A stretch of DNA of 64,000 nucleotides, from assembly GCF_001677475.2 (NCBI RefSeq), contig NZ_CP015229.1; one strand, written 5' to 3'. The notes under the pieces are model-generated. The model was not told where the DNA came from, ran no database searches, and worked only from the letters and a program-made list of their open reading frames with translations. The position numbers and the translations under genes were made by a program. Below, one piece after another: positions 9,977 through 33,267 of the stretch; position 1 is the first letter of the stretch, and the number at the start of each line of letters is the position of its first letter. Source of the DNA: Escherichia coli. GTDB taxonomy: Bacteria > Pseudomonadota > Gammaproteobacteria > Enterobacterales > Enterobacteriaceae.

Positions 9977-10810
9977 GTGAAAAAAACACAGCAAAAAGAA
10001 ATCGAAAATGTGACAAATATCACAGGTGTTCGTCAAATTGAGTTATGGCGGCGTGATGATTTACAACACCCACGGTTAGATGAGGTCGCGGAAGAAGTTC
10101 CCGTTGCGCTGGTCTACAACGGCATTTCGCATGTGGTGATGATGGCGTCGCCCAAAGACCTTGAGTACTTTGCGCTCGGTTTTTCGCTTTCCGAGGGGAT
10201 AATAGAAAGTCCGCGCGATATCTTCGGCATGGATGTCGTTCCTTCCTGTAATGGTCTTGAAGTACAAATTGAGCTTTCCAGCCGCCGCTTTATGGGGTTG
10301 AAGGAGCGCCGCCGGGCGCTGGCGGGACGTACGGGCTGTGGCGTATGCGGCGTGGAGCAACTTAATGACATCGGAAAACCGGTGCAGCCGCTACCGTTCA
10401 CCCAGACGTTTGATCTCAACAAACTGGATGATGCATTACGTCATCTCAATGATTTCCAGCCAGTGGGGCAACTGACTGGTTGTACTCACGCCGCCGCCTG
10501 GATGTTGCCATCTGGCGAACTGGTCGGCGGGCATGAAGACGTGGGTCGCCATGTGGCGCTGGATAAACTGCTGGGCCGCCGGGCGCAAGAAGGGGAAGGC
10601 TGGCAGCAAGGTGCGGTACTGGTTTCCAGTCGTGCCAGTTATGAAATGGTGCAAAAGTCGGCGATGTGCGGCGTAGAGATTTTGTTTGCGGTGTCTGCCG
10701 CGACCACGCTTGCTGTAGAAGTGGCTGAGCGTTGTAATCTGACGCTGGTAGGTTTTTGTAAACCAGGTCGGGCAACCGTTTATACCCATCCGCAGCGTTT
10801 GAGCAATTAA
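9977..10810 (+). CDS. fdhD: Formate dehydrogenase accessory sulfurtransferase FdhD
   Basis: 277 aa ORF divergent from fdoG. Confidence 0.9.
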
Positions 10811-10818
10811 TTAAAATA

Positions 10819-10860
10819 AGTCCTGCGATATATATTAAATTGCAGGACTTATTCATTTTG
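10819..10860 (+). terminator. Rho-independent terminator after fdhD (aagtcctgc...gcaggactt + T-rich)
   Basis: 9-bp inverted repeat followed by attcattttg. Confidence 0.5.
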
Positions 10861-10962
10861 TGAATTTTATTATTTTATTTATAAACAAAACGCGTGTAGT
10901 GGCGTTTTCTTTTTTCATTTATTATGTTCACTCTCTTATCTATATATTTATAAGGCAATTAA

Positions 10963-12018
10963 ATGAAAAGGAATTTATTATCTTCCGCTATTATAGTCGC
11001 CATCATGGCCCTCGGTCTGACGGGTTGTGATGATAAAAAAGCCGAAACAGAAACTCCCCCGCCCGCCAATAGTCAACCTGCCGCTCCAGCTCCTGAAGCG
11101 AAACCTACTGAAGCTCCCGTTGCAAAAGCAGAAGCTAAACCTGAAACGCCTGCGCAACCGGTGGTCGATGAACAAGCGGTTTTCGACGAAAAAATGGATG
11201 TCTATATTAAGTGCTACAACAAGTTACAGATCCCTGTACAGAGCAGTCTGGCGCGTTATGCTGACTGGCTGAAAGATTTTAAACAGGGGCCTACCGGTGA
11301 AGAGCGTACTGTTTATGGCATCTACGGCATTAGTGAATCCAGCCTATCTGAGTGTGAAAAAGGCGTAAAAAGTGCTGTGGCGTTAACGCCTGCGCTGCAA
11401 CCAATTGATGGCGTGGCGGTGAGTTATATCGATGCTGCCGTGGCGTTGGGTAATACCATTAACGAAATGGATAAATATTACACCCAGGAAAATTATAAAG
11501 ACGATGCGTTTGCGAAAGGGAAAACGCTGCACCAGACATTCTTAAAAAATCTGGAAGCCTTTGAACCTGTAGCAGAATCTTATCATGCGGCGATTCAGGA
11601 AATTAATGATAAGCGTCAGCTTGCGGAACTGAAAAATATTGAACAAAGAGAAGGGAAAACATTCCACTACTACTCTCTGGCAGTCATGATTTCAGCGAAA
11701 CAAATTAATAACCTGATATCGCAAGATAAGTTTGATGTTGATGCGGCAATGAAGAAAGTCTCTGAACTGGAAACGCTGGTGGCGCAGGCCAAAGAAGCGG
11801 ATAAAGGCGGTATGAATTTCTCGTTCATTAATTCGGCAGACCAGTATCAACTCGAGGCTAAAAAATATGTTCGCCGCGTCAGAGATAAAGTTCCGTACTC
11901 TGACTGGGATAAAGAGCAACTTCAGGATGCAAACACAAGCTGGATGGTCGACGACTCTTTCCCGAGAGCATTACGCGAGTACAACGAAATGGTCGATGAT
12001 TATAATCGCCTGCGTTAA
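10963..12018 (+). CDS. yiiG: Lipoprotein YiiG (DUF3829 family)
   Basis: 351 aa ORF with lipobox LGLTGC and Pro/Ala/Glu-rich linker. Confidence 0.85.
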   Translation: MKRNLLSSAIIVAIMALGLTGCDDKKAETETPPPANSQPAAPAPEAKPTEAPVAKAEAKPETPAQPVVDEQAVFDEKMDVYIKCYNKLQIPVQSSLARYADWLKDFKQGPTGEERTVYGIYGISESSLSECEKGVKSAVALTPALQPIDGVAVSYIDAAVALGNTINEMDKYYTQENYKDDAFAKGKTLHQTFLKNLEAFEPVAESYHAAIQEINDKRQLAELKNIEQREGKTFHYYSLAVMISAKQINNLISQDKFDVDAAMKKVSELETLVAQAKEADKGGMNFSFINSADQYQLEAKKYVRRVRDKVPYSDWDKEQLQDANTSWMVDDSFPRALREYNEMVDDYNRLR

Positions 12019-12044
12019 ACGTTTTTGTTTTTGCTGTGAAATAC

Positions 12045-12082
12045 AAGGTCGGATGTGGCGTAAACGCCTTATCCGACCTACA
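12045..12082. repeat. REP (repetitive extragenic palindrome) element
   Basis: ggatgtggcgtaaacgccttatccgacctac matches the REP family seen repeatedly in this window. Confidence 0.7.
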
Positions 12083-12119
12083 CGTCATTAAGCCGTGTCA
12101 GCTGTGGATCCGACAACAT

Positions 12120-12631
12120 TCACCCCTCGCGAAGTAACGCCATAAACCCTTCATACCCCGTTAGCCCGACAATAGTTTCCGCCGAATGCTGACACAGGAC
12201 GCTGGCAAGATAGCTGAATATTTTTAACTCGTGACGCGCATCGGCGGCGGCGCAGGCGATCAAGACATGGTTAATGACTTCGTTATTCACCTCAACTGGT
12301 TGGGCGAGGGTAATAAAAAATCCACGAAAACGTCGCTCCTGTTCGCTCCAGCAATTTCGCCATCGCTGGCTTTCCAGTCAATGGCCTGCGCTTTGCGGGC
12401 GAACAACACAAAGGGCTGTTTTACGCAGGCGCTTTTACCGTGCGGCACGGCGATGCCGGAACCAAATCCCGTGGAGTGCATTTTTTCGCGCAGCAGCAGG
12501 GTTTGCAGGAACTGGTGTTAGTCGGTGATAAAACCGTTTTGTAACGCCATTGTCGCCAACTGCTTCAGAATGGAATAAGCGCCATTGCCCTGAATATTCA
12601 GGTCAATACAGCTTGCAGTAAGAGCTGCCAT
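12120..12631 (-). pseudogene. frvA: frvA (PTS EIIA fructose-like) pseudogene: in-frame TAA after codon 37 plus a downstream frameshift
   Basis: Minus-strand reading MAALTASCIDLNIQGNGAYSILKQLATMALQNGFITD*HQFLQTLLLREKMHSTGFGSGIAVPHGKSAC... with EIIA motif GIAVPHG; C-terminal part continues in another frame. Confidence 0.7.
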
Positions 12632-13108
12632 TAATCGAACTCCATGAAAAAATATTTCAGTTAATTGTAACGGCGGGGCGGGTTTGTGATGAGCGCGGAT
12701 ATGTCGTGAAGTCGTGACAATATAAAGCAGAGTGAAGGATAAATTTTGCGGGGTAAGGCACATAGTGATTGGTAAAATAAATGTTGTGAATAAAAATTAA
12801 TTCTTTAATGATTTTATGAATGTTTAACTGTCGCGGATATTTTGCTGCAACGTTATTTATATTTGTGGCTTATGAGTCAGCGTGAATCATATCTAATATT
12901 TTTTACGATATTTAGTTAAAAACGGCACTATTGTTATATTCCTCACGTTCCAGGAAATCAGCGGATTTACTCATATTATGCAGCGGGATACTATCCATCG
13001 GCCTGCTGAAGTTGGATTAAAAATTCGAAAGTGCACACCTTATATTTCTCTATATGCGTATTCCTTTTGGAAAGCGTAGGGTCTCTTTTATTTCAGGGAA
13101 CGTAAATA

Positions 13109-14503
13109 ATGAAAAAATCGACATTATCTTTAGCCATCGGTTTATTATTGGCATGTAGTACCGGAATGGCAAAAACACAGCATTTAACGCTGGAACAACG
13201 CATGGCATTGCTGGAAGAACGCCTGGAAGCGGCAGAAATGCGGGCAGCAAAAGCAGAGAGCCAGGTTAAACAGCTGCAGACACAACAAGCCGCTGAGATC
13301 CGCGAAATTAAGACTGCCCAGGGCAATACGCCGGTAAATGGACAGGCAACGGCGGAATCTGCAAAGAAAAATTCCACCTCACCTAATCTTTTGCTCTCAG
13401 GTTATGGCGATTTAAAAATCTACGGCGACGTAGAATTTAATATGGATGCGGAAAGTAATCATGGCCTGCTGGCAATGACCAACGCTGATGTGAATAGCGA
13501 TCCCACTAATGAACAGTGGAATCTCAATGGTCGTATTCTGTTAGGTTTTGATGGTATGCGAAAACTGGATAATGGTTATTTCGCCGGGTTCTCCGCACAA
13601 CCGCTGGGGGACATGCACGGTTCAGTAAATATCGATGATGCGGTATTCTTCTTTGGCAAAGAAAACGACTGGAAGGTCAAAGTAGGCCGTTTTGAAGCCT
13701 ACGATATGTTCCCGCTGAATCAGGATACCTTTGTTGAACATTCCGGTAATACTGCGAACGATCTTTATGACGATGGCAGCGGTTATATCTATATGATGAA
13801 AGAGGGCCGCGGGCGCTCTAACGCTGGCGGTAATTTCCTCGTCAGCAAACAACTTGATAACTGGTATTTTGAATTAAACACGTTACTTGAAGACGGAACA
13901 TCTTTATATAATGATGGTAATTATCATGGACGCGATATGGAGCAGCAGAAAAATGTTGCTTATCTGCGTCCGGTAATTGCCTGGTCGCCGACGGAAGAAT
14001 TCACCGTTTCCGCAGCGATGGAAGCGAACGTGGTAAATAATGCTTATGGTTATACCGATAGCAAGGGTAATTTTGTCGATCAGTCCGATCGTACCGGCTA
14101 TGGTATGAGCATGACCTGGAATGGCCTGAAAACGGATCCGGAAAATGGTGTCGTGGTTAATCTTAATACCGCCTATTTAGATGCTAATAATGAGAAAGAC
14201 TTCACTGCCGGGATTAACGCGCTGTGGAAACGTTTCGAGCTGGGTTATATCTACGCGCACAATAAGATTGATGAATTCAGCGGTGTAGTTTGTGATAACG
14301 ACTGCTGGATTGATGATGAAGGGACGTACACCATTCACACCATTCATGCGTCTTATCAGTTCGCTAATGTGATGGATATGGAGAACTTTAATATTTACCT
14401 CGGGACGTATTACTCCATTCTGGATAGCGACGGTGATAAAAAACACGGTGATGATACTGATGACCGTTACGGCGCACGCGTTCGCTTTAAATACTTCTTC
14501 TGA
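13109..14503 (+). CDS. Putative outer-membrane beta-barrel porin with N-terminal coiled coil (BglH/ScrY-like or OprB-like carbohydrate porin)
   Basis: 464 aa ORF: signal peptide MKKSTLSLAIGLLLACSTGMA, heptad-rich LTLEQRMALLEERLEAAEMRAAKAESQVKQLQ, aromatic-rich body with alternating residues, C-terminal RFKYFF. Confidence 0.6.
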   Translation: MKKSTLSLAIGLLLACSTGMAKTQHLTLEQRMALLEERLEAAEMRAAKAESQVKQLQTQQAAEIREIKTAQGNTPVNGQATAESAKKNSTSPNLLLSGYGDLKIYGDVEFNMDAESNHGLLAMTNADVNSDPTNEQWNLNGRILLGFDGMRKLDNGYFAGFSAQPLGDMHGSVNIDDAVFFFGKENDWKVKVGRFEAYDMFPLNQDTFVEHSGNTANDLYDDGSGYIYMMKEGRGRSNAGGNFLVSKQLDNWYFELNTLLEDGTSLYNDGNYHGRDMEQQKNVAYLRPVIAWSPTEEFTVSAAMEANVVNNAYGYTDSKGNFVDQSDRTGYGMSMTWNGLKTDPENGVVVNLNTAYLDANNEKDFTAGINALWKRFELGYIYAHNKIDEFSGVVCDNDCWIDDEGTYTIHTIHASYQFANVMDMENFNIYLGTYYSILDSDGDKKHGDDTDDRYGARVRFKYFF

Positions 14504-14508
14504 TGAAG

Positions 14509-14540
14509 TCGCGGTGCTGGATATTTTCCGGCACCGCAAC
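14509..14540. terminator. Hairpin between convergent porin gene and rhaM (gcggtgc...gcaccgc)
   Basis: 7-bp inverted repeat; no strong T-run, so weak call. Confidence 0.3.
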
Positions 14541-14543
14541 TCA

Positions 14544-14858
14544 TTAAGGCAGGTAAAACACTTCTTGCAGCTCGCTACTGACTGGGCTGTTATCCGGGTT
14601 AGCTGGCATAACGTCGGTCATATATTTCCACCAACGTTGGCAAACATCAGTACTGGCTACCGCATTCCACCGTTCTTCAGATTCAATCTCTACCGTGGCA
14701 AACAGCAGATTACGCGCTTTGTCGAGGTAAATGGTGTAGTTATGCGCACCGTGAGATTTCAACACTGCTTCCAGTTCCGGCCAGATGGGATTATGCCGAC
14801 GCTGATACTCTTCGTGGGCGTCGGGGTTAACCTGCATGACAAAGGCTTTGCGGATCAT
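14544..14858 (-). CDS. rhaM: L-rhamnose mutarotase
   Basis: 104 aa ORF, position downstream of rhaD. Confidence 0.9.
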
Positions 14859-14867
14859 GTTTGCTCC

Positions 14868-15692
14868 TTACAGCGCCAGCGCACTGGCTAGTGGTGTAAC
14901 GCCGAAGCGCTTGCCGAGCGCTATCAACTCTTCACGGTTGATGGTCTGTTTCATGCCGCCCATCGAATAAACCTTCACTAATACTTGTGCTGATTTTTCT
15001 GCGGTGTCGATTAAACCGAATGTTTCATCCAGCGTCGGCCCGCTGCCGAAGACGCCGTGGAAGGGCCACAACACCAGCGAATGTTTTTGCATTTCTTGTG
15101 CGGTCGCCTGGCCGATTTCGTCCGTGCCGGGCACCATCCACGGCAGAATGCCAACGCCATCCGGGAACACTACCAGACACTCGGTGCTGCCTTCCCACAG
15201 TTGGCGAGTAAAGACCGCGGTGTCGTTTTCCAGTACGTAGGTAAGGGCGATCAGGTTGGTGGCGTGGCAGTGCATGATCACCCGATCTTTACCGTTGGTG
15301 GCTTTAATGCGCTCGCAGTGGGAAAGGAAGTGAGCCGGAAGTTCGGAAGTGGGGACGGCTTCGTTGGTTAATCCCCAGAGAATATGGTAGCCCGCGCCGT
15401 CGCTGTCGACTTTTACGACGCCTAAGTTAGCCGCAGGATCAAGCTGGACGTTACGGAAGAATTTGCCGGAGCCGGTGACAATAAACGGTGTATTTGCCAG
15501 TAAAGGCATGGGCTGGCTGAGCGGAATATAGCGTGGTTGTGGGTGGAAGTTGTCGTGATAAAGCGCGATATCGGCGTCATCCAGGCGCAGCGTCAGGTTG
15601 CCGCCGTTGCGCTCGTCCCAGCCTTTCAGCCAGGCATCGGTGGTGGCTTTGATCATTCCCTGGACAAACCAGGACTGGGTAATGTTTTGCAT
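14868..15692 (-). CDS. rhaD: Rhamnulose-1-phosphate aldolase
   Basis: ORF trimmed to [13 protein letters not shown]... (274 aa). Confidence 0.9.
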
Positions 15693-15735
15693 GTTCTGTG
15701 TTCCTGTAAATTCGGTGTTGTCAGATGCACGACCC

Positions 15736-15771
15736 GTAGGCCGGATAAGGCGCTCGCGCCGCATCCGGCAG
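15736..15771. repeat. REP element between rhaD and rhaA
   Basis: gtaggccggataaggcgctcgcgccgcatccggcag. Confidence 0.7.
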
Positions 15772-15774
15772 TGT

Positions 15775-18787
<3,013 letters not shown>

Positions 18788-19624
18788 ATGGCCGTATTAC
18801 ATAGTGTGGATTTTTTTCCGTCTGGTAACGCGTCCGTGGCGATAGAACCCCGGCTCCCGCAAGCGGATTTTCCTGAACATCATCATGATTTTCATGAAAT
18901 TGTGATTGTTGAACATGGCACGGGTATTCATGTGTTTAATGGGCAGCCCTATACCATCACCGGTGGCACGGTCTGTTTTGTGCGCGACCATGATCGGCAT
19001 CTGTATGAACATACCGATAATCTGTGTCTGACCAATGTGCTATATCGCTCGCCGGATCGATTTCAGTTTCTCGCCGGGCTGAATCAGTTGCTGCCACAAG
19101 AGCAGGATGGGCAGTATCCGTCTCACTGGCGAGTTAACCACAGTGTATTGCAGCAGGTGCGACAGCTGGTTGCACAGATGGAACAGCAGGATGGGGAAAA
19201 TGATTTACCCTCGACCGCCAGTCGCGAGATCTTGTTTATGCAATTACTGCTCTTGCTGCGTAAAAGCAGTTTGCAGGAGAACCTGGAAAACAGCGCATCA
19301 CGTCTCAACTTGCTTCTGGCCTGGCTGGAGGACCATTTTGCCGATGAGGTGAATTGGGATGCTGTGGCGGATCAATTTTCTCTTTCGCTGCGTACGCTAC
19401 ATCGGCAGCTTAAGCAGCAAACGGGACTGACGCCTCAGCGTTACCTGAACCGCCTGCGACTGATGAAAGCCCGACATCTGCTACGCCACAGTGAGGCCAG
19501 CGTTACTGACATCGCCTATCATTGCGGATTCAGCGACAGTAACCACTTTTCGACGCTTTTTCGCCGAGAGTTTAACTGGTCTCCGCGTGATATTCGCCAG
19601 GGACGGGATGGCTTTCTGCAATAA
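18788..19624 (+). CDS. rhaS: AraC-family activator RhaS
   Basis: 278 aa ORF with C-terminal HTH. Confidence 0.9.
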
Positions 19625-19697
19625 CGCGAATCTTCTCAACGTATTTGTACGCCATATTGCGAATAATCAACTTCGTTCTCTGGCCGAGGTAGCCACG

Positions 19698-20546
19698 GTG
19701 GCGCATCAGTTAAAACTTCTCAAAGATGATTTTTTTGCCAGCGACCAGCAGGCAGTCGCTGTGGCTGACCGTTATCCGCAAGATGTCTTTGCCGAACATA
19801 CACATGATTTTTGTGAGCTGGTGATTGTCTGGCGCGGTAATGGTCTGCATGTACTCAACGATCGCCCTTATCGCATTACCCGTGGCGATCTCTTTTACAT
19901 TCATGCTGACGATAAACACTCCTACGCTTCCGTTAACGATCTGGTTTTGCAGAATATTATTTATTGCCCGGAGCGGCTGAAGCTGAATCTTGACTGGCAG
20001 GGGGCGATTCCGGGATTTAGTGCCAGCGCAGGGCAACCACACTGGCGCTTAGGTAGCGTGGGGATGGCGCAGGCGCGGCAGGTTATCGGTCAACTTGAGC
20101 ATGAAAGTAGTCAGCATGTGCCGTTTGCTAACGAAATGGCAGAGTTGCTGTTCGGGCAGTTGGTGATGTTGCTGAATCGCCATCGTTACACCAGCGATTC
20201 GTTGCCGCCAACATCCAGCGAAACATTGCTGGATAAGCTGATTACCCGGCTGGCGGCCAGCCTGAAAAGTCCCTTTGCGCTGGATAAATTTTGTGATGAG
20301 GCATCGTGCAGTGAGCGCGTTTTGCGTCAGCAATTTCGCCAGCAGACTGGCATGACCATCAATCAATATCTGCGGCAGGTCAGAGTGTGTCATGCGCAAT
20401 ATCTTCTCCAGCATAGCCGCCTGTTAATCAGTGATATTTCAACCGAATGTGGCTTTGAAGATAGTAACTATTTTTCGGTGGTGTTTACCCGGGAAACCGG
20501 GATGACGCCCAGCCAGTGGCGTCATCTCAATTCGCAGAAAGATTAA
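19698..20546 (+). CDS. rhaR: AraC-family activator RhaR (GTG start at 19698; upstream in-frame ATG at 19608 would overlap rhaS)
   Basis: ORF in frame from 19491; 282-aa form from [13 protein letters not shown]... Confidence 0.85.
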
Positions 20547-21577
20547 TTCGCCATGCCCATGCCGACGATGTTGGCGGCGACAATAATCACCACACAACCG
20601 AGGCTCAACACCGTTACCGGACGGCGACCTGCATTGTTCCACTCTTTCAGCACCAACCCGACGATACCGCCGCACAATACATAGAAGCTCATATGCAGCA
20701 TCCAGCTGATGTAGTCATACTGCGCCGGAATACGCGCGTGGCCCCAGGCATAGAAAAAGAATTGTAGATACCACATCAACCCGCCCAGTGCTGAGAGTAA
20801 CACATTGTGAATGATCAGCGGTTTTGCCAGCGAGAAGTCGGCTTTTAGCGACAAATCCTTCATTTTTGCCAGACGAATAAAACAGAAACCGAGGTTGATG
20901 ATCGCGCCGCCGCCCATGATGACAACATAGCTTGGCAGAGCGACATACAGTGGATCGACGCCTAGTGCGACAGCGGCTTCATGCATCGGTTTTGCGGCGT
21001 TCATCGCAAAGGACATCCCGGCAGAGAAAATGCCGCACATCACCGCCAGCACCAGCCCTTTTTTCAGATTGAACTCTTCGGCTTTAATGCCCATCTTGCG
21101 CTCTTTCAACTGCCCGGCTCGAGTTACAATCCCTACGCCAATCAGCGCCACCAGAACGCCGAGCAACGTCATGCGTCCGCCTTCGGTATTAATCAGCACA
21201 TCGAAATTGCCGTTGATAATTGGCGTCATCAGCGTACCGACAATCAACGTAATGCCAATGGCGATGCCAATTCCCATCGACATGCCGAGATAACGCATGG
21301 TCAGGCCGTAGTTGATATTACCGATCCCCCACATAGCGCCGAACAGAAAAACAGGCAGCAGCGTAGAGAGACTAAACGAGCTGTAATACGCCCAGAAATT
21401 CGGCAGTAACAGGGCGCTGATGGCCCACGGCAGAATAATCCACGAAACAATCCCACCAACTGACCACATGGTTTCCCATGACCATTTTTTTACTTTTTTG
21501 AACGGAGCGTAAAAACAGGCTGCACTGGCCGCGCCGATCAAATGCCAAAATATCCCCATCGTAATCGCGTTACTCAT
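20543..21577 (-). CDS. rhaT: L-rhamnose-proton symporter
   Basis: 344 aa polytopic membrane ORF. Confidence 0.9.
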
Positions 21578-21861
21578 CTTCTTATCCTCATCATTTTTCG
21601 TCGCGTCACATCTCCGACGAGATGAGTGTAAAAATCGTGCTGTCGATTAACCTTTCGCCTGTTGCCGCCGTTGTCGATTTACTGGCAATCACGGCATTAA
21701 GTGGGTGATTTGCTTCACATCTCGGGCATTTTCCTGCAAAACCATACCCTTACGAAAAGTACGGCATTGATAATCATTTTCAATATCATTTAATTAACTA
21801 TAATGAACCAACTGCTTACGCGGCATTAACAATCGGCCGCCCGACAATACTGGAGATGAAT

Positions 21862-22482
21862 ATGAGCTATACCCTGCCATCCCTGCCGTATGCTTACGAT
21901 GCCCTGGAACCGCACTTCGATAAGCAGACCATGGAAATCCACCACACCAAACACCATCAGACCTACGTCAACAACGCCAACGCGGCGCTGGAAAGCCTGC
22001 CAGAATTTGCCAACCTGCCGGTTGAAGAGCTGATCACCAAACTGGACCAGCTGCCAGCAGACAAGAAAACCGTACTGCGCAACAACGCTGGCGGTCACGC
22101 TAACCACAGCCTGTTCTGGAAAGGTCTGAAAAAAGACACCACCCTGCAGGGTGACCTGAAAGCGGCTATCGAACGTGACTTCGGCTCCGTTGATAACTTC
22201 AAAGCAGAATTTGAAAAAGCGGCAGCTTCCCGCTTTGGTTCCGGCTGGGCATGGCTGGTGCTGAAAGGCGATAAACTGGCGGTGGTTTCTACTGCTAACC
22301 AGGACTCCCCGCTGATGGGTGAAGCTATTTCTGGCGCTTCCGGCTTCCCGATTCTGGGCCTGGATGTGTGGGAACATGCTTACTACCTGAAATTCCAGAA
22401 CCGCCGTCCGGACTACATCAAAGAGTTCTGGAACGTGGTGAACTGGGACGAAGCAGCGGCACGTTTCGCGGCGAAAAAATAA
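21862..22482 (+). CDS. sodA: Manganese superoxide dismutase
   Basis: [36 protein letters not shown]... (206 aa). Confidence 0.95.
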
Positions 22483-22741
22483 TCATTTGCCGCCTGCTGC
22501 AATGAGGCGTTTACGCCGCATATCAGCTTAAAAAATGAACCATCGCCAACGGCGGTGGTTTTTTTGTGATCAATTTCAAAATAAAAACAATAATCCGATA
22601 AAAATAAAACAGTGTTTCAATTGATGTGGTTTTGATCACTTTTATTGATTAAATGAATGTCTATCTTCGTTTCCATCAACACTGATGCTCCATTGAGGAA
22701 TTACGCATCAGCCCTTAAAAATATGCCGACAGGTGATGGAA

Positions 22742-23725
22742 ATGCAGATAAAACGCTCGATTGAGAAAATCCCGGGGGGGATGATGCTCGTCCCGCTATT
22801 CCTTGGCGCACTGTGCCACACCTTCTCGCCGGAGGCGGGGAAATATTTTGGATCATTCACCAACGGGATGATTACCGGTACGGTGCCCATTCTGGCGGTG
22901 TGGTTTTTTTGCATGGGGGCGTCAATAAAATTAAGCGCGACGGGAACGGTATTGCGTAAATCCGGTACGCTGGTGGTAACAAAAATTGCCGTCGCGTGGG
23001 TGGTTGCGGCAATTGCCTCGCGCATTATTCCGGAACATGGTGTTGAAGTTGGATTCTTTGCCGGACTTTCAACGCTGGCGCTGGTGGCGGCGATGGATAT
23101 GACAAACGGCGGACTTTACGCTTCCATCATGCAGCAGTACGGCACAAAAGAAGAAGCTGGGGCATTTGTGTTGATGTCGTTGGAGTCCGGGCCGCTCATG
23201 ACGATGATTATTTTGGGCACTGCCGGGATTGCCTCGTTTGAACCGCATGTTTTCGTCGGCGCAGTATTACCGTTCCTGGTGGGCTTTGCCCTGGGGAACC
23301 TTGACCCTGAATTGCGAGAATTTTTCAGCAAAGCGGTGCAAACGCTGATTCCGTTCTTTGCCTTCGCGCTGGGCAATACCATTGATTTGACTGTGATTGC
23401 CCAGACAGGTTTGCTGGGGATCCTGTTGGGTGTGGCAGTAATCATCGTGACCGGTATTCCGTTGATTATCGCCGATAAATTGATTGGCGGTGGCGATGGT
23501 ACAGCCGGAATCGCGGCTTCCAGTTCCGCAGGGGCCGCGGTAGCGACACCTGTGCTGATTGCAGAAATGGTGCCTGCGTTTAAACCGATGGCTCCGGCAG
23601 CAACTTCGCTGGTAGCGACGGCGGTCATTGTGACTTCGATTCTGGTGCCAATTCTTACCTCTATCTGGTCACGTAAAGTCAAAGCCAGAGCGGCGAAAAT
23701 CGAAATTTTAGGTACGGTGAAATAA
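22742..23725 (+). CDS. kdgT: 2-keto-3-deoxygluconate permease
   Basis: 327 aa membrane ORF. Confidence 0.85.
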
Positions 23726-23873
23726 ACCTGCTTCCTTAATCTCCACAGCCGGATGAACTAACGTTCGTCCGGTTTGCTATTGAGTTCCTGCCTGGATACT
23801 TACCGCGAAAACAGCACGCCTGACATAAAATAAATATGGTCTAATGGGGAAATTTCTCGTGGAGAGGGAACAG

Positions 23874-24548
23874 ATGCGATATCCGGTTGATGTATACACA
23901 GGCAAGATTCAGGCTTATCCCGAAGGCAAACCCAGCGCAATTGCCAAAATCCAGGTTGATGGTGAGTTGATGCTGACGGAGCTGGGGCTGGAAGGTGACG
24001 AGCAGGCGGAGAAAAAGGTTCACGGCGGGCCAGACAGAGCGCTGTGTCATTATCCTCGTGAGCATTATCTCTACTGGGCGCGGGAATTTCCGGAACAGGC
24101 GGAGTTGTTTGTTGCGCCTGCGTTTGGCGAAAACCTCTCAACCGATGGCCTGACGGAAAGTAATGTTTATATTGGCGATATTTTCCGCTGGGGAGAGGCA
24201 TTAATTCAGGTCAGCCAGCCACGCTCACCTTGCTATAAACTTAATTACCATTTTGATATCAGCGATATAGCGCAGTTGATGCAAAACACGGGTAAAGTGG
24301 GGTGGTTGTATAGCGTGATAGCGCCAGGGAAAGTGTCTGCGGACGCGCCGCTGGAGTTGGTTTCCCGTGTCAGCGATGTGACCGTGCAGGAGGCTGCCGC
24401 CATCGCATGGCATATGCCGTTTGATGACGATCAATATCACCGTTTACTCTCCGCCGCCGGGTTATCGAAAAGCTGGACGCGGACGATGCAAAAGCGCCGA
24501 CTGAGCGGCAAGATCGAAGATTTTTCCCGCCGGTTGTGGGGAAAATAA
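23874..24548 (+). CDS. yiiM: MOSC-domain protein YiiM
   Basis: 224 aa from MRYPVDVYTGKIQ... Confidence 0.85.
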   Translation: MRYPVDVYTGKIQAYPEGKPSAIAKIQVDGELMLTELGLEGDEQAEKKVHGGPDRALCHYPREHYLYWAREFPEQAELFVAPAFGENLSTDGLTESNVYIGDIFRWGEALIQVSQPRSPCYKLNYHFDISDIAQLMQNTGKVGWLYSVIAPGKVSADAPLELVSRVSDVTVQEAAAIAWHMPFDDDQYHRLLSAAGLSKSWTRTMQKRRLSGKIEDFSRRLWGK

Positions 24549-24551
24549 CCC

Positions 24552-24648
24552 CCCGGAGTGTAGGCCTGATAAGACGCTATCAGCGTCGCATCAGGCATCC
24601 TGCTCAAATGCCGGATGCGGCGTAAACGCCTTATCCTGCCTACAAATG
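24552..24648. repeat. Pair of REP elements (BIME-like)
   Basis: gtaggcctgataagacgctatcagcgtcgcatcaggc and gccggatgcggcgtaaacgccttatcctgcctac. Confidence 0.7.
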
Positions 24649-24654
24649 CGGAGT

Positions 24655-26028
24655 TTAACTCCGCTTATACAGCGGCAACCAAATTACCAGCCGTAAACCG
24701 CCCAGCGGGCTGTCTTCTGCCTTCACCCAGCCACGATGCTGCTGAATGGCGGTTTCAACAATCGCCAGCCCCAAACCTGTACCGCCAGATTCACGATCGC
24801 GTGCTTCATCGGTACGATAGAACGGACGGAAAATCTGTTCGCGATCTTCCGGGCTAACGCCAGGACCATCGTCGTCCACCGTAATGGTGATACCGTCTTT
24901 ATCTACCGCAAAGCCCACTTCAATCTTCGTATGGGAATAACGCAGGGCATTACGAACAATGTTTTCCAGCGCACTCTCCAGGGCGTTCGGGTTGCCGTAC
25001 AGCGGCCACGGCCCAGGCGGGAAGTTAACCGTCAACGACTTGCCCATCTGCTCGGCTTCGAACGCCGCGTTATCCAGCACTTCACTCCACAACTGGTTGG
25101 CTTTGATGGTCTCGCTAACCAGCGCATTTTTCTGCTGATTACGTGACATCACCAACAGATCGTTGATCATGCTGTCCAGACGTTGCGCTTCGGTTTCAAT
25201 ACGCTCCAGTTCCTTGCTTTCACCGCTACGACGGCGCAGTAACGCCGTACCCAGTTGCAGACGCGTCAGCGGGGTGCGCAGTTCGTGAGAGATATCAGAA
25301 AGTAGACGCTGCTGAGAGGTCATCATGCGCTCCAGCGCGGTGACCATCTGGTTAAAACTGGCACCGGCGGCAAGGAATTCCTGTGGCCCCGCTTCCAGTT
25401 CCGGGTGCTGGCGTAAGTTTCCCTGGGCAACTTCATCTGCAGCGTTTTTCAGCTTACGCGCCGGTTTTGCCAGACTCCAGGCCAACCACAACAGCAGCGG
25501 CGTACTGACCAGCATGGTGACAATCAGCAGTAATAGCGGGCGGTCAAACAGTAAGTTAATGAAATCGGATTGAGAACTGCTGGCCGGACGAATCAGATAA
25601 AGTTGGTAATTATCTTCGCCATCACGCACGGAGAACGGACCGACCAGTTCCACGCGGCCATACTTTTTCTTCTGCGGATGATCGGCGTTATCAGCCTGAC
25701 CAATAAAGTTACGAATGATCTGCATTTCGCTGCGTTCAGCGCCGATCACGCGGCCTTCGGTGGTCACCAATAACAAACGCTGTCCTGGCGGTGCCCACTT
25801 ATCAATCGCCCGGAACAGACGCCGCCACCACATTAAATCGTTGGGCGGATCGTTCGCCAGCTCCGCTTCAACATGCTGCTCAATCATCAGCCCCTGACGC
25901 TGTTCGCTATCCAGAAGCTCGGTCATCTGGCGTGAATCGAGCTTGGGTAACATCAAAACCAACATCAACACCAGCGCCAGCGTCAGCCAGAAGATGGCGA
26001 AGATGCGCGCGGTTAAGCTGCCTATCAT
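24655..26028 (-). CDS. cpxA: Envelope-stress sensor histidine kinase CpxA
   Basis: 457 aa ORF with HAMP/H-box (SHELRTPLT). Confidence 0.95.
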   Translation of the reverse strand: MIGSLTARIFAIFWLTLALVLMLVLMLPKLDSRQMTELLDSEQRQGLMIEQHVEAELANDPPNDLMWWRRLFRAIDKWAPPGQRLLLVTTEGRVIGAERSEMQIIRNFIGQADNADHPQKKKYGRVELVGPFSVRDGEDNYQLYLIRPASSSQSDFINLLFDRPLLLLIVTMLVSTPLLLWLAWSLAKPARKLKNAADEVAQGNLRQHPELEAGPQEFLAAGASFNQMVTALERMMTSQQRLLSDISHELRTPLTRLQLGTALLRRRSGESKELERIETEAQRLDSMINDLLVMSRNQQKNALVSETIKANQLWSEVLDNAAFEAEQMGKSLTVNFPPGPWPLYGNPNALESALENIVRNALRYSHTKIEVGFAVDKDGITITVDDDGPGVSPEDREQIFRPFYRTDEARDRESGGTGLGLAIVETAIQQHRGWVKAEDSPLGGLRLVIWLPLYKRS

Positions 26029-26723
26029 GAAGCAGAAACCATCAGATAGCCGCGACCACGCAAGGTTTTAAACCACGGGTGACCATCTTTACGATCCGGC
26101 AGTTTACGACGCAGGTTGGAAATGTGCATATCGATAGCGCGGTCGAAAGGCGTCAGGCGTTTGCCCAGCACTTCCTGGCTTAAATGTTCACGGGAAACCA
26201 CCTGACCCAGATGCTGTGCCAGCAAATAGAGCAGGGTAAACTCAGTGCCGGTTAACTCCAGCGTTTGCCCGTCGAAGCTGGCTTCCTGACGGCCTGGATT
26301 CAGCACTAAGGCATCAACCTCAAGTGTCGGTGAACCGTTGTCGTTGTTTTGCTGTTGCTCGCTCCAGTGCGAACGGCGCAGGATCGCGCGAATACGTGCC
26401 ACCAGCTCACGATCATTAAACGGTTTCGGGAGATAGTCATCTGCGCCCAGCTCAAGGCCGAGAACGCGATCAAGTTCACTGCCGCGCGCCGTCAACATAA
26501 TGACAGGCGTCTGGTGTGTCTGGCGAAGTGCTTTTAATGTGTCGATACCATTTTTCTTTGGCATCATTACATCAAGCAAAAGTAAATCAATGCTGTCGTC
26601 CAGAAGATCAAGCGCCTGTTCCCCATCGTGGGCAACAATCACGTTGAAGCCTTCCATCTCGAGCAGCTCCTTTAATAGGGAAGTCAGCTCTCGGTCATCA
26701 TCAACTAACAGGATTTTATTCAT
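26025..26723 (-). CDS. cpxR: Response regulator CpxR
   Basis: 232 aa OmpR-family ORF, overlaps cpxA start. Confidence 0.95.
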   Translation of the reverse strand: MNKILLVDDDRELTSLLKELLEMEGFNVIVAHDGEQALDLLDDSIDLLLLDVMMPKKNGIDTLKALRQTHQTPVIMLTARGSELDRVLGLELGADDYLPKPFNDRELVARIRAILRRSHWSEQQQNNDNGSPTLEVDALVLNPGRQEASFDGQTLELTGTEFTLLYLLAQHLGQVVSREHLSQEVLGKRLTPFDRAIDMHISNLRRKLPDRKDGHPWFKTLRGRGYLMVSAS

Positions 26724-26777
26724 TGTTTAAATACCTCCGAGGCAGAAATTACGTCATCAGACGTCGCTAATCCATGA

Positions 26778-26793
26778 CTTTACGTTGTTTTAC
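26778..26793 (-). promoter_or_regulatory. CpxR box (GTAAA-N5-GTAAA) in cpxR/cpxP divergent promoter region
   Basis: Minus-strand reading GTAAAACAACGTAAAG. Confidence 0.6.
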
Positions 26794-26872
26794 ACCCCCT
26801 GACGCATGTTTGCAGCCTGAATCGTAAACTCTCTATCGTTGAATCGCGACAGAAAGATTTTGGGAGCAAATG

Positions 26873-27373
26873 ATGCGCATAGTTACCGCTGCCGTCATGG
26901 CCTCAACGCTGGCAGTCAGTTCATTAAGCCACGCTGCTGAAGTCGGTTCAGGCGATAACTGGCATCCGGGTGAAGAACTTACGCAGCGCAGTACGCAGAG
27001 CCATATGTTCGACGGCATAAGTTTAACCGAACATCAGCGTCAGCAGATGCGAGATCTTATGCAACAGGCCCGGCACGAACAGCCTCCTGTTAATGTTAGC
27101 GAACTGGAGACAATGCATCGCCTTGTCACCGCAGAAAATTTTGATGAAAACGCTGTGCGCGCACAGGCAGAAAAAATGGCGAATGAGCAAATTGCTCGTC
27201 AGGTTGAGATGGCAAAAGTCCGCAACCAAATGTATCGCCTGTTAACGCCGGAGCAGCAAGCGGTTTTAAACGAGAAACATCAACAACGAATGGAGCAGTT
27301 GCGCGACGTGACGCAATGGCAAAAAAGTTCATTGTTGAAGCTATTGAGTAGTAGCAACTCACGTTCCCAGTAG
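26873..27373 (+). CDS. cpxP: Periplasmic Cpx pathway inhibitor/chaperone CpxP
   Basis: 166 aa from [21 protein letters not shown]... Confidence 0.9.
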
Positions 27374-27375
27374 TA

Positions 27376-27439
27376 AACCCTGTTTTCCTTGCCATAGACA
27401 CCATCCCTGTCTTCCCCCACATGATGTGGGGGTTTTTTT
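27376..27439 (+). ncRNA. cpxQ: cpxP 3'UTR-derived sRNA region (CpxQ) ending at the cpxP intrinsic terminator
   Basis: Position directly after cpxP stop; terminator hairpin cccccacatgatgtggggg + T8 at 27413-27439; exact 5' end not determinable from sequence. Confidence 0.5.
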
Positions 27440-27521
27440 TATCCTCAATTTGCCTGCTGCTTAATGCATTGCAGATGATTTGCTTCCGTTATACTAGCGT
27501 CAGTTGATAGCGGGAGTATTT

Positions 27522-28424
27522 ATGAATCAATCTTATGGACGGCTGGTCAGTCGGGCGGCGATTGCTGCGACGGCGATGGCTTCGCTGCTATTGCTGATTA
27601 AAATTTTTGCATGGTGGTATACCGGGTCGGTGAGTATTCTCGCCGCGCTGGTGGATTCGCTGGTGGATATCGGCGCGTCGTTGACGAATTTACTGGTGGT
27701 GCGATATTCCCTGCAACCTGCCGACGATAATCACTCGTTTGGTCACGGTAAAGCTGAGTCCCTCGCGGCGCTGGCGCAAAGTATGTTTATCTCCGGTTCA
27801 GCACTATTCCTGTTTTTGACGGGTATTCAACATCTGATATCTCCAACACCGATGACAGATCCAGGCGTCGGGGTTATCGTGACAATTGTGGCGCTAATTT
27901 GTACGATTATCCTTGTCTCGTTTCAGCGTTGGGTGGTGCGCCGGACGCAAAGCCAGGCGGTGCGGGCTGATATGCTACATTACCAGTCTGATGTTATGAT
28001 GAACGGCGCAATTCTGCTGGCGCTGGGGTTGTCCTGGTACGGCTGGCATCGCGCCGATGCTCTGTTTGCATTGGGAATCGGCATCTATATTTTATATAGC
28101 GCGTTACGCATGGGATATGAGGCGGTACAGTCATTACTGGATCGCGCATTGCCTGATGAGGAACGGCAAGAAATTATTGATATCGTGACTTCCTGGCCGG
28201 GTGTTAGCGGCGCTCACGATCTTCGCACGCGGCAGTCAGGGCCGACCCGCTTTATTCAGATTCATTTGGAAATGGAAGACTCTCTGCCTTTGGTTCAGGC
28301 ACATATGGTGGCGGATCAGGTAGAGCAGGCTATTTTACGGCGTTTTCCGGGATCGGATGTGATTATCCATCAGGACCCCTGTTCCGTCGTACCCAGGGAG
28401 GGTAAACGGTCTATGCTTTCATAA
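27522..28424 (+). CDS. fieF: Cation-diffusion facilitator (ferrous iron/zinc efflux) FieF
   Basis: 300 aa from [13 protein letters not shown]... Confidence 0.9.
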
Positions 28425-28604
28425 TCAGTATAAAAGAGAGCCAGACCCGCATTTTGTGTATAAAATACCGCCATTTGGCCTGACCTGAATCAATTCAGCA
28501 GGAAGTGATTGTTATACTATTTGCACATTCGTTGGATCACTTCGATGTGTAAGAAGACTTCCGGCAACAGATTTCATTTTGCATTCCAAAGTTCAGAGGT
28601 AGTC

Positions 28605-29567
28605 ATGATTAAGAAAATCGGTGTGTTGACAAGCGGCGGTGATGCGCCAGGCATGAACGCCGCAATTCGCGGGGTTGTTCGTTCTGCGCTGACAGAAGGT
28701 CTGGAAGTAATGGGCATTTATGACGGCTATCTGGGTCTGTATGAAGACCGTATGGTACAGCTAGACCGTTACAGCGTTTCTGACATGATCAACCGTGGCG
28801 GTACGTTTCTCGGTTCTGCGCGTTTCCCGGAATTCCGCGACGAGAACATCCGCGCCGTGGCTATCGAAAACCTGAAAAAACGTGGTATCGACGCGCTGGT
28901 GGTTATCGGCGGTGACGGTTCCTACATGGGTGCAATGCGTCTGACCGAAATGGGCTTCCCGTGCATCGGCCTGCCGGGCACTATCGACAACGATATCAAA
29001 GGCACTGACTACACTATCGGTTTCTTCACTGCGCTGAGCACCGTTGTAGAAGCGATCGACCGTCTGCGTGACACCTCTTCTTCTCACCAGCGTATTTCCG
29101 TGGTGGAAGTGATGGGCCGTTATTGTGGCGATCTGACGTTGGCTGCGGCCATTGCCGGTGGCTGTGAATTCGTTGTGGTTCCGGAAGTTGAATTCAGCCG
29201 TGAAGACCTGGTAAACGAAATCAAAGCGGGTATCGCGAAAGGTAAAAAACACGCGATCGTGGCGATTACCGAACATATGTGTGATGTTGACGAACTGGCG
29301 CATTTCATCGAGAAAGAAACCGGTCGTGAAACCCGCGCAACTGTGCTGGGCCACATCCAGCGCGGTGGTTCTCCGGTGCCTTACGACCGTATTCTGGCTT
29401 CCCGTATGGGCGCTTACGCTATCGATCTGCTGCTGGCAGGTTACGGCGGTCGTTGCGTAGGTATCCAGAACGAACAGCTGGTTCACCACGACATCATCGA
29501 CGCTATCGAAAACATGAAGCGTCCGTTCAAAGGCGACTGGCTGGACTGCGCGAAAAAACTGTATTAA
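28605..29567 (+). CDS. pfkA: 6-phosphofructokinase I
   Basis: [23 protein letters not shown]... (320 aa). Confidence 0.95.
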
Positions 29568-29624
29568 TGATTTCGGAAAAAGGCAGATTCCTTTAGCCTG
29601 AAACCGATGACAGAAGCAAAAATG

Positions 29625-29725
29625 CCTGATGCGCTTCGCTTATCAGGCCTACATGAATTCTGCAATTTATTGAATTTGCGAACTTTTGTAGGCCGGATAA
29701 GGCGTTCGCGCCGCATCCGGCATGG
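29625..29725. repeat. REP element cluster downstream of pfkA
   Basis: gcctgatgcgcttcgcttatcaggcctac ... gtaggccggataaggcgttcgcgccgcatccggca. Confidence 0.7.
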
Positions 29726-29886
29726 ACAAAGCGCACTTTGTCAGCAATATGAGGCGGATTTCTTCCGCCTTTTTAATCCCCCAACATATACCCGCAAGTT
29801 ATAGCCAATCTTTTTTTATTCTTTAATGTTTGGTTAACCTTCTGGCACGCTTTGCTCATCACAACACAACATAAGAGAGTCGGGCG

Positions 29887-30876
29887 ATGAACAAGTGGGG
29901 CGTAGGGTTAACATTTTTGCTGGCGGCAACCAGCGTTATGGCAAAGGATATTCAGCTTCTTAACGTTTCATATGATCCAACACGCGAATTGTACGAACAG
30001 TACAACAAGGCATTCAGCGCCCACTGGAAACAGCAAACTGGCGATAACGTGGTGATCCGTCAGTCCCACGGTGGTTCAGGCAAACAAGCGACGTCGGTAA
30101 TCAACGGTATTGAAGCTGATGTTGTCACGCTGGCTCTGGCCTATGACGTGGACGCAATTGCGGAACGCGGGCGGATTGATAAAGAGTGGATCAAACGTCT
30201 GCCGGATAACTCCGCACCGTACACTTCCACCATTGTTTTCCTGGTACGTAAGGGCAATCCGAAGCAGATCCATGACTGGAACGATCTGATTAAACCGGGT
30301 GTTTCGGTGATCACGCCTAATCCGAAAAGCTCTGGTGGCGCGCGCTGGAACTACCTGGCAGCCTGGGGCTACGCGCTGCATCACAACAACAACGATCAGG
30401 CAAAAGCACAGGATTTTGTTCGGGCACTGTATAAAAACGTCGAAGTTCTGGATTCTGGCGCGCGCGGCTCCACTAACACTTTTGTCGACCGCGGAATTGG
30501 CGATGTACTGATTGCCTGGGAAAACGAAGCTCTGCTGGCAGCAAATGAACTGGGGAAAGATAAATTCGAAATCGTCACGCCGAGTGAGTCTATCCTCGCA
30601 GAGCCAACCGTGTCGGTGGTCGATAAAGTGGTCGAGAAAAAAGGTACCAAAGAGGTGGCGGAAGCCTACCTGAAATATCTCTACTCGCCAGAAGGTCAGG
30701 AAATTGCCGCGAAAAACTACTACCGTCCGCGCGACGCTGAGGTAGCGAAAAAGTACGAAAATGCGTTTCCAAAGCTGAAGTTATTCACCATTGATGAAGA
30801 GTTCGGCGGCTGGACGAAAGCGCAAAAAGAGCATTTTGCTAACGGCGGTACGTTCGATCAGATCAGCAAACGCTGA
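29887..30876 (+). CDS. sbp: Periplasmic sulfate-binding protein
   Basis: 329 aa ORF with signal peptide. Confidence 0.9.
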
Positions 30877-30982
30877 TTTCCCCAGGATAATTATCAAACC
30901 CGGTGGTTTCTCGCGACCGGGTTTTTTATTTGTCACGATTTTGCGTTACCCTTGCATCTCTTTGAGGTACAGGGAAAAAAAG

Positions 30983-31738
30983 ATGAAAAAAGCGGGTCTT
31001 CTTTTTTTGGTGATGATAGTTATCGCCGTTGTGGCTGCCGGTATTGGTTACTGGAAATTAACCGGTGAAGAGTCGGATACATTACGTAAGATTGTCCTTG
31101 AGGAATGTTTGCCCAATCAGCAGCAAAATCAAAATCCTTCGCCATGTGCGGAAGTCAAACCTAATGCCGGATACGTGGTTTTAAAAGATCTTAATGGCCC
31201 ACTGCAATATCTGTTGATGCCAACGTATCGTATTAACGGTACTGAAAGTCCTTTGTTGACCGATCCTTCAACGCCGAACTTTTTTTGGTTGGCCTGGCAG
31301 GCGCGTGATTTTATGAGCAAAAAATACGGCCAGCCGGTTCCCGATCGCGCGGTTTCTTTGGCGATCAACTCCCGCACCGGGCGTACGCAAAACCATTTTC
31401 ATATTCATATCTCTTGTATTCGTCCTGATGTGCGCGAACAGCTGGATAACAATCTGGCGAACATCAGCAGCCGCTGGTTGCCACTGCCAGGTGGTTTGCG
31501 CGGGCATGAATACCTGGCGCGTCGGGTAACGGAAAGCGAACTGGTACAACGCAGCCCATTTATGATGCTGGCGGAAGAAGTGCCTGAGGCGCGGGAACAT
31601 ATGGGAAGCTACGGGCTGGCGATGGTACGGCAGAGTGATAACTCATTTGTATTGCTGGCGACACAACGAAATCTACTGACGCTTAACCGTGCTTCAGCCG
31701 AAGAAATTCAGGATCATCAGTGTGAGATTTTGCGTTAA
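30983..31738 (+). CDS. cdh: CDP-diacylglycerol pyrophosphatase
   Basis: 251 aa from [16 protein letters not shown]...; longer track ORF start rejected. Confidence 0.85.
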
Positions 31739-31757
31739 GGCGAAGAGTTAAGGAAAG

Positions 31758-31786
31758 TAAGTGCCGGATATGAAATCCGGCACCTG
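31758..31786. terminator. Bidirectional hairpin terminator between cdh and tpiA (gtgccggat...atccggcac)
   Basis: 9-bp perfect inverted repeat between convergent genes. Confidence 0.5.
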
Positions 31787-31792
31787 TCAGAC

Positions 31793-32560
31793 TTAAGCCT
31801 GTTTAGCCGCTTCTGCAGCTTTAACGATTACTGCGAAAGCGTCAGCTTTCAGAGAAGCACCGCCAACCAGCGCGCCGTCGATGTCTGGTTGAGCAAACAG
31901 TTCTGCAGCGTTAGACGCGTTTACAGAGCCGCCGTACTGAATGATCACTTGTTCAGCGATGTTAGCGTCAACTTTAGCGATGTGGTCACGGATGAATTTG
32001 TGAACAGCCTGTGCCTGAGCCGGAGTTGCAGATTTGCCAGTACCGATTGCCCATACAGGTTCGTAAGCGATAACCGCACCTTCGAATGCCGCAGCACCCT
32101 GAGTTTTCAGTACCGCGTCGATCTGACGTGCGCAAACTTCTTCAGTTTTTCCCGCTTCGTTTTCAGCTTCGGTTTCACCGATGCACAGAACCGGAGTCAG
32201 ACCCTGCTCTTTCAGCACCGCGAATTTTTTCGCGATCAGTTCGTCAGACTCGTTGTGGTAAGTACGACGTTCAGAGTGGCCGATGATGATGTACTGTGCG
32301 CCGATGTCTTTCAGCATAGCAGCAGAGGTTTCACCGGTGAATGCGCCGGACAGGTTCAGGTCCACGTTTTGCGCACCCAGCATGATGTGGCTGCCTTCAG
32401 CTTCGCGCTTCGCCATATCGATGTACATTTCCGGTGGTGCGATTGCAACCGCACAGCCAGCAACACCTGCCAGCTCTTTACGCAGGTTAGAAACCAGCTC
32501 GTGAACCATGTGGCGGCTGCCGTTCAGTTTCCAGTTACCCATCACTAAAGGATGTCGCAT
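31793..32560 (-). CDS. tpiA: Triosephosphate isomerase
   Basis: 255 aa [17 protein letters not shown]... Confidence 0.95.
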
Positions 32561-32667
32561 TTTAATTCTCCACGCTTATAAGCGAATAAAGGAAGATGGC
32601 CGCCCCGCAGGGCAGCAGGTCTGTGAAACAGTATAGAGATTCATCGGCACAAAGGCTTTGCTTTTTG

Positions 32668-33267
32668 TCATTTATTCAAACCTTCAAGCGATTCAGATAG
32701 CGCCAGCTTAATCGGTTCAACAGCGAAGGTCAGCCCCTTTTCGCCGTTGTCCGCGACAACATAACGCAGTGCACCTTCTGTCTCGGTGTAATAACGTTTG
32801 TTTTTCCCCGCCGTTAGTAGCGACTGCAGTTTTTTCTGGCTTTGTGTTTTGGTCATTAATGGGGTGAGTGTGCGGATCACTGCTGCCATGTATTCCTGAG
32901 CTTTCGCTTTCGCTGCTTTTTGCTCTGGCCCCTGGATGGGTAGCCAGGTCATTTGAATGCTTTTGATTTTTAAGGTACCGCGCTCCAGCGCAGTAGACGC
33001 ATACAAATTCTCGTTAATTTTACTTGCAGCACGAGTGAGATTGGCTTTGTCGGGACTGCTGTCGATGGCACGAAATTCGTTCAGTGGCAGGCTGGGATTC
33101 TGGCTGTTAAAGTCTTCTCGAAACTGGCTGATGGAGAGATCGAAAGTAGGGGCTCCAGCCAGCAGATAAGGCGCGGTCGTTGCCGTATCTGGTGTTTGTG
33201 CATGCGCCGTTGTTGTAACGGTTAATGCAGAACATAAGAGAAAAAACAGCGTACACCCTGGCTTCAT
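32668..33267 (-). CDS. yiiQ: Periplasmic protein YiiQ (DUF1454)
   Basis: 199 aa ORF with signal peptide. Confidence 0.8.
   Translation of the reverse strand: MKPGCTLFFLLCSALTVTTTAHAQTPDTATTAPYLLAGAPTFDLSISQFREDFNSQNPSLPLNEFRAIDSSPDKANLTRAASKINENLYASTALERGTLKIKSIQMTWLPIQGPEQKAAKAKAQEYMAAVIRTLTPLMTKTQSQKKLQSLLTAGKNKRYYTETEGALRYVVADNGEKGLTFAVEPIKLALSESLEGLNK

Follow-up and report, generated by a model that had tools for sequence, protein, structure and literature searches.

In the 64-kb stretch of Escherichia coli DNA analysed here (the window), a minus-strand block of frv sequence (12120-12631, with its start ATG at 12631-12629) lies between yiiG and a porin gene. On its left, yiiG (10963..12018, plus strand) is an intact 351-aa ORF for a DUF3829 lipoprotein, 97.3% identical to K-12 yiiG. 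The exact YiiG protein of the window is deposited as 'YiiG family protein [Escherichia coli]' and is present on 35 contigs; together with the porin of the same lineage it forms the adjacent accessions ANO91855.1 and ANO91856.1, whose source records label the lineage E. coli. The yiiG gene and the frv block converge on a normal intergenic spacer of 101 nt (12019..12119). On the right, 477 nt of intergenic DNA (12632..13108) separate the frvA start from a divergently oriented and intact carbohydrate porin gene (Pfam Porin_8, 464 aa, 13109..14503, plus strand), beyond which come rhaM, rhaD, rhaA and rhaB on the minus strand. K-12 MG1655 has no porin gene here, just 300 bp separating frvA from rhaM, but the gene is found between frvA and rhaM in many other E. 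coli and in Escherichia sp. MOD1-EC7003 (EC7003). A promoter and terminator scan of 11900-13200 gave no signal exceeding shuffle expectation. Further to the left, Rfam SECIS_3 (84 bits) matches 9143-9201 on the minus strand, inside fdoG, and the split ORF of the formate dehydrogenase alpha subunit (9196-9783 and 6733-9147) reflects the known in-frame TGA selenocysteine codon and is no pseudogene.

The right-hand part of the block is the 5' end of frvA. The earlier note on this DNA had described a minus-strand EIIA reading frame with a GIAVPHG motif, and this frame is indeed FrvA, read from the ATG at 12631-12629: positions 12356..12631 (minus strand) hold frvA nt 1-276, i.e. codons 1-92 of 148 (tblastn, FrvA 1-92, 95.7% identity), and retain the active-site motif GSGIAVPHGKS. 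Translation of the block from the ATG gives MAALTASCIDLNIQGNGAYSILKQLATMALQNGFITD, a stop, then HQFLQTLLLREKMHSTGFGSGIAVPHGKS and further residues. The stop, correctly reported before as an in-frame TAA after codon 37, occupies codon 38 (12518..12520, minus strand; 'TTA' on the plus strand), where all other alleles examined have TCA (Ser) or CCT (Pro), those of E. coli having TCA. No complete 148-codon ORF exists, frvA being cut at codon 92 and stopped at codon 38. Two close relatives bear on the order of events. One (L004) matches 13 kb of the window at 100% identity, TAA included, while in the other (L005; 99.99% identity over 11.3 kb) the sole difference is base 12519, giving TCA (Ser). Since L005 carries the deletion junction described below together with TCA, the deletion came first and the nonsense mutation later, and the TAA is a recent secondary mutation that is still polymorphic within the window lineage. 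Gene calls for the truncated product of 37 aa exist on 7 contigs, and this lineage's Ser38 hybrid ORF is called on 2.

To the left of codon 92 the homology switches to frvR. Positions 12120..12355 (minus strand) carry the last 236 nt of that gene, namely 2 nt of codon 505, codons 506-582 and the native stop, a TGA at 12120-12122 that lies 101 nt from the yiiG stop (12016-12018). FrvR 505-582 aligns at 88.5% identity without an indel (tblastn), and the remnant is collinear with frvR of K-12, O157:H7, strain Z1323CEC0005 (L002) and EC7003. By blastn, window 12108-12355 matches K-12 4088095-4088342 and L002 2548-2795, which comprise the frvR 3' end and some downstream bases. Pfam places HTH_11 at residues 5-60 of FrvR and PTS_EIIA_2 at residues 455-560; the remnant encodes only the C-terminal half of the latter EIIA-like domain, and FrvR residues 1-504, HTH_11 included, have no match anywhere in the 64-kb window (tblastn). 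The downstream frame had looked EIIA-like because FrvR ends in a PTS_EIIA_2 domain.

Alignment to the frv-intact reference loci of strain Z1323CEC0005 (L002), K-12 MG1655 (L006) and O157:H7 (L007) places a deletion junction at 12355..12356, spanned by the sequence GCTCCAGCAATTTCGCCATCGC. Compared with the intact loci 4,205 bp are missing (K-12 NC_000913.3 4088343-4092547; L002 2796-7000), comprising frvA codons 93-148, all of frvB, all of frvX and frvR codons 1-504, and both breakpoints fall inside coding sequence (frvR nt 1513/1514, frvA nt 276/277). Consistent with this, tblastn with the four Frv proteins put FrvA 1-92 directly next to FrvR 505-582. Neither frvB nor frvX has a match anywhere in the 64-kb window by tblastn or blastn, and the deleted 4.2 kb gave no blastn match there either. 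The join is out of frame, because 276 nt make 92 codons but 236 nt make 78 codons plus 2 nt, and read-through ends at a TGA 22 codons past the junction (12287..12289, minus strand). In relatives without the TAA this leaves a 114-aa hybrid ORF, which is found in public collections and whose 22 post-junction residues are unrelated to either parent. The frame change near the 3' third of frvA that the earlier note had reported is thus real, coming after codon 92 of 148, but it marks the deletion junction and not an indel inside frvA: past codon 92 there is no FrvA homology, and collinearity with frvR instead. Similarly, frvBXR had been thought absent; this holds for frvB and frvX throughout the window, but the last 78 codons of frvR and its stop remain.

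We are highly confident that the interval records one 4,205-bp deletion within frvABXR, which joined frvA codon 92 to a point within frvR codon 505. The deletion removed the 3' third of frvA, frvB (the EIIBC transporter), frvX (an M42 peptidase) and 87% of frvR, and a later C-to-A change in the window sublineage turned codon 38 into TAA and cut the product to 37 aa. Since no transporter or regulator is left the locus is presumably dead, and from its sequence the frv locus appears to be non-functional in this lineage. The earlier idea of a PTS operon lost by deletion and decay is borne out, with only a dead stub left.

A short direct repeat lies at both breakpoints. The frvR copy of this 9-bp sequence, TCCAGCAAT (12347..12355), ends at the frvR breakpoint, and the frvA copy, together with 7 bp (TGACGTC), lies just inside the deleted DNA at the frvA breakpoint. 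The copies are 4,198 bp apart, both encode xAT-TGC-TGG-A (Cys-Trp) in the same codon phase, and they are found at the breakpoints in four of four intact alleles (K-12, L002, O157 and EC7003). For 200,000 random breakpoint pairs in the same locus, the probability of a repeat of at least 9 bp within 10 bp was 1.65e-4, in a test devised after the repeat had been seen. The 9-bp direct repeat thus probably mediated the deletion. Microhomology-mediated deletions between short direct repeats, which are illegitimate and RecA-independent, are established among the spontaneous deletions of E. coli. The scar resembles such a textbook deletion in the repeat beside both breakpoints and in the few-kb length, but the junction (0 bp overlap) is not the one-copy-retained product: the frvA repeat copy ends 7 bp from the breakpoint. 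With this 7-bp offset, the microhomology route needs an extra step or an imprecise event. Illegitimate recombination at the microhomology, or replication slippage between the 9-bp repeats, would delete 4,198 bp, and a repeat-exact event would by itself leave an in-frame FrvA(1-97)::FrvR(508-582) fusion as a predicted intermediate (sequence GCTCCAGCAATTGACGTCTTCGCC). If TGACGTC (7 bp) was lost as well, whether at once or subsequently, the present out-of-frame junction would be the result; restoring these 7 bp to the junction in silico does give the in-frame fusion. The intermediate, 7 bp longer than the final junction, was found neither in the 5,426 complete E. coli genomes nor, using a variable-gap pattern, in the JGI metagenomes, and the same pattern search of the metagenomes returned 0 matches to the final junction. 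We also considered breakpoints at equivalent EIIA positions, which would form a proper hybrid domain. This is ruled out by their placement, as the FrvR breakpoint directly follows the AIPH active-site motif and the FrvA breakpoint lies ~30 residues past its own PH motif. Because the breakpoints are non-equivalent, any fusion duplicates a domain segment, and the in-frame product would be no proper EIIA domain.

The junction is rare. Only one of the 5,426 complete RefSeq E. coli genomes, GF43 (NZ_CP172127.1), has it, while frvR or frvA sequence is present in 4,060 of them, and the exact junction pattern has 0 matches when searched against one genome per GTDB species. It is base-identical in GF43, L004, L005 and L034-L037, and the 114-aa hybrid ORF of the GF43 type is called on 103 contigs (NCBI, ENA and Logan), with four sampled loci 100% identical to GF43. 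The earlier note had proposed checking whether related strains share the nonsense codon and the frame change; the junction does occur in related and unrelated strains, but the TAA is unfixed even within the window lineage. A scan of GTDB species representatives based on FrvR found MOD1-EC7003 as the only Escherichia genome, the other loci belonging to Citrobacter, Kluyvera, Trabulsiella, Buttiauxella and others.

The deletion exists as two haplotypes, that of the window and the GF43-type, which near the junction differ at 20 of 387 nt and in the distal frvR tail at 24 of 125; divergence is 5-19% across the remnant (3.6-7% in the flanks). Among six alleles compared, FrvA codon 60 ATC and codon 83 GCC (the shared sites being 12454 T and 12383 G) occur only in the two deletion alleles, the four intact ones being without them. 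Because the junction is identical and these two codon states are common to deletion alleles only, we infer that the deletion arose once and reached two diverged E. coli backgrounds either through old age or through transfer by homologous recombination. The haplotype divergence is high for a single origin, short of an ancient event or of flanks replaced by recombination; given a single origin, then, the event would be old or have been moved by recombination. Lineage-specific changes, counted as synonymous to non-synonymous, number 8:5 and 6:6, which is not enough to demonstrate neutral decay. Compared with the 5,426 complete E. coli genomes, the best identity is 96.8% to the left of the scar (1-12020) and 98.5% to the right (13100-33000). 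Such values might point to Shigella or a non-coli Escherichia as the source, but this is rejected because the exact YiiG and porin proteins are both deposited under E. coli. Complete RefSeq genomes cover the source lineage poorly, and the DNA on either side of the frv scar may differ in history.

Within the frvR remnant, the distal tail (12120-12244) differs from E. coli alleles at 20-24 of 125 sites and from EC7003 at 12 of 125, and the adjoining 111 nt, which reach the junction, show no difference from K-12 and O157. The distal tail is a mosaic patch with a sharp boundary inside the remnant. Both 12120-12244 and the spacer segment 12028-12107 are closer to Escherichia sp. MOD1-EC7003. Read in the FrvR frame, most changes in the tail are synonymous, suggesting that this allele diverged, or was brought in, before frvR lost its function.

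The spacer next to the remnant holds the REP element that the earlier note had seen abutting a frvA pseudogene. The REP is genuine, and it does lie in the ~100 nt from yiiG, but the frvR tail stands between it and frvA. It forms a hairpin (12046..12079) between the convergent yiiG and frvR, agrees with the consensus at 25 of 26 positions (12050-12075), and is part of a 110-nt stretch folding at -35.7 kcal/mol (z = -3.77); consensus matches number 7 in the window and 0 in 100 shuffles. Consensus, palindrome, extragenic position and multiple copies all mark it as a REP element. The spacer measures 101 nt in the window and 49 nt in K-12; those of K-12, O157, L002 and GF43 carry a 25-nt hairpin and are shorter by the 46-47 nt at 12061-12107. 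(The short K-12 hairpin cannot be explained as a deletion between two ATCCGAC repeats of the REP spacer, as the coordinates do not fit.) The position of the REP between yiiG and the remnant, and the EIIA-like downstream frame, could be taken to mean that frvA is a pseudogene of full length, disabled by a nonsense codon and by a frameshift within the gene, and that frvBXR was removed separately by REP/BIME recombination. That reading is highly improbable, and the alignments refute it. The downstream frame is FrvR 505-582, and frvA codons 93-148 cannot be aligned to 12120-12355. Both endpoints are in the coding DNA of frvR and frvA, the nearer one ~280 bp from the REP, whereas REP/BIME-mediated deletion would be expected to end at the elements. 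Furthermore, the long REP-bearing spacer aligns gap-free to Escherichia sp. MOD1-EC7003, where yiiG lies on one side of it and an intact frvR-frvX-frvB-frvA on the other and where the 4,205 bp lacking from the window are present, and GF43 has the identical junction with a short spacer and no full REP. Since GF43 combines the two latter features, the REP polymorphism and the deletion are unlinked events. The REP is an ordinary occupant of the yiiG-frvR spacer with no part in the deletion, and REP/BIME recombination has to be given up as its cause.

Every intact allele keeps the 9-bp repeat, and thus the substrate is available everywhere; a recurrent hotspot acting independently in the window lineage and the GF43-type lineage would also account for haplotypes that differ by 5-19% across the remnant and by 3.6-7% in the flanks. 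We nevertheless consider separate origins very unlikely, as the junction is base-identical down to the unexplained 7-bp offset, the two derived codon states are common to the deletion alleles only, and just two haplotypes are seen among thousands of genomes. Persistence of the scar in two diverged backgrounds, and a 114-aa hybrid ORF with a PTS_EIIA_2 match on more than 100 contigs, might instead speak for a functional new gene, with selection keeping either a FrvA-FrvR chimera of EIIA type or a small peptide. This too is hard to believe, as no sign of function was found: the fusion is out of frame with 22 residues resembling neither parent, the EIIA domain lacks its C-terminal third and has no cognate EIIBC, the window sublineage tolerates a stop at codon 38, and both pieces are pseudogenes in the PGAP annotation. 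A collapse in the assembly, or a miscalled base behind the TAA, is next to impossible, the junction recurring in independent NCBI, ENA and Logan assemblies and the TAA in L004, with the 37-aa product on 7 contigs. A different proposal, to which we give little credence, is that the scar is an old polymorphism in two backgrounds which perhaps began as the in-frame FrvA(1-97)::FrvR(508-582) chimera, made at the Cys-Trp codons common to both genes, and which, instead of being erased completely as one might expect, was kept for a role in cis; candidates for that role could be the promoter-proximal DNA of frvA acting on the porin gene, and the frvR tail with the hairpin serving as a yiiG terminator.

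The deletion inside frvABXR is ordinary gene loss, and its fragments are already flagged as pseudogenes in the public GF43 annotation; in the literature we found no relevant report of an frv deletion or pseudogene. The correct labels are 'frvA 5' fragment' and 'frvR 3' fragment', not frameshifted frvA, and the REP should not be named as the cause. The case also carries a caution for annotation, since a deletion between operon genes whose domains are paralogous, as are the EIIA domains of FrvA and FrvR, can mimic a frameshift in a single gene. As a lineage marker, the exact junction conveniently identifies the two rare haplotypes. More broadly, E. coli can do without the frv PTS and has lost it on more than one occasion, another and complete deletion being carried by about one in five complete genomes. 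Beyond annotation accuracy the finding has little importance. Elsewhere in the window a paralogous EIIA-type domain (63041-63469, minus strand; 29% identical to FrvA) presumably belongs to the frw/ptsA PTS cluster, and this lineage therefore keeps other fructose-like PTS components.

The natural reference is E. coli K-12 frvABXR (b3900-b3897), an operon for a cryptic PTS of the fructose-like kind, an M42 peptidase and the regulator FrvR. The window has its remnants at the same chromosomal site, from yiiG to the rha genes, with 95% nucleotide identity for the frvA head and 91% for the frvR tail. Unlike K-12, it lacks frvB, frvX and the HTH domain of FrvR, its frvA is shortened and interrupted by a stop, and it has the additional porin gene. 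GF43 is much closer, sharing the base-identical junction and the order yiiG, frvR', 'frvA, porin, rhaM. In its PGAP annotation the scar is a pair of adjoining partial pseudogenes, ACHP5S_RS15495 ('hypothetical protein, missing N-terminus') and ACHP5S_RS15490 ('PTS fructose transporter subunit IIA, missing C-terminus'). It differs from the window in having TCA (Ser) at codon 38, a short hairpin like that of K-12 where the window has the full REP, and a 4.5-kb insertion between fdhD and yiiG. An insertion of ~4.5 kb at this place is seen in GF43-type genomes, in EC7003 and in strains such as SCU-301 (related loci L001 1-2969; L034 7818-11961; L008 about 10042-14533), whereas the window has no such DNA between 10810 and 10963. 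Its products are an HSP90-like/HATPase_c_3 ATPase of 611 aa and a protein of 768 aa with a faint match to TPR; PADLOC gave only a weak TmtA match (E = 1e-5), and the insertion could be an uncharacterised defence-like island.

Finally, the different and complete frv deletion, present in 1,165 of the 5,426 complete genomes (e.g. E01 and ATCC 25922), resembles the scar of the window in that the same operon is lost at the same site and the upstream region of the porin gene is kept; in the alignments, sequence from 12650 rightwards is untouched by both deletion types. It differs in extent, taking the 3' end of yiiG, the spacer and all frv sequence: the equivalent of 12000-12649 is gone, and a truncated yiiG is joined to the porin upstream region, where the window retains an intact yiiG, the spacer and the two frv fragments.
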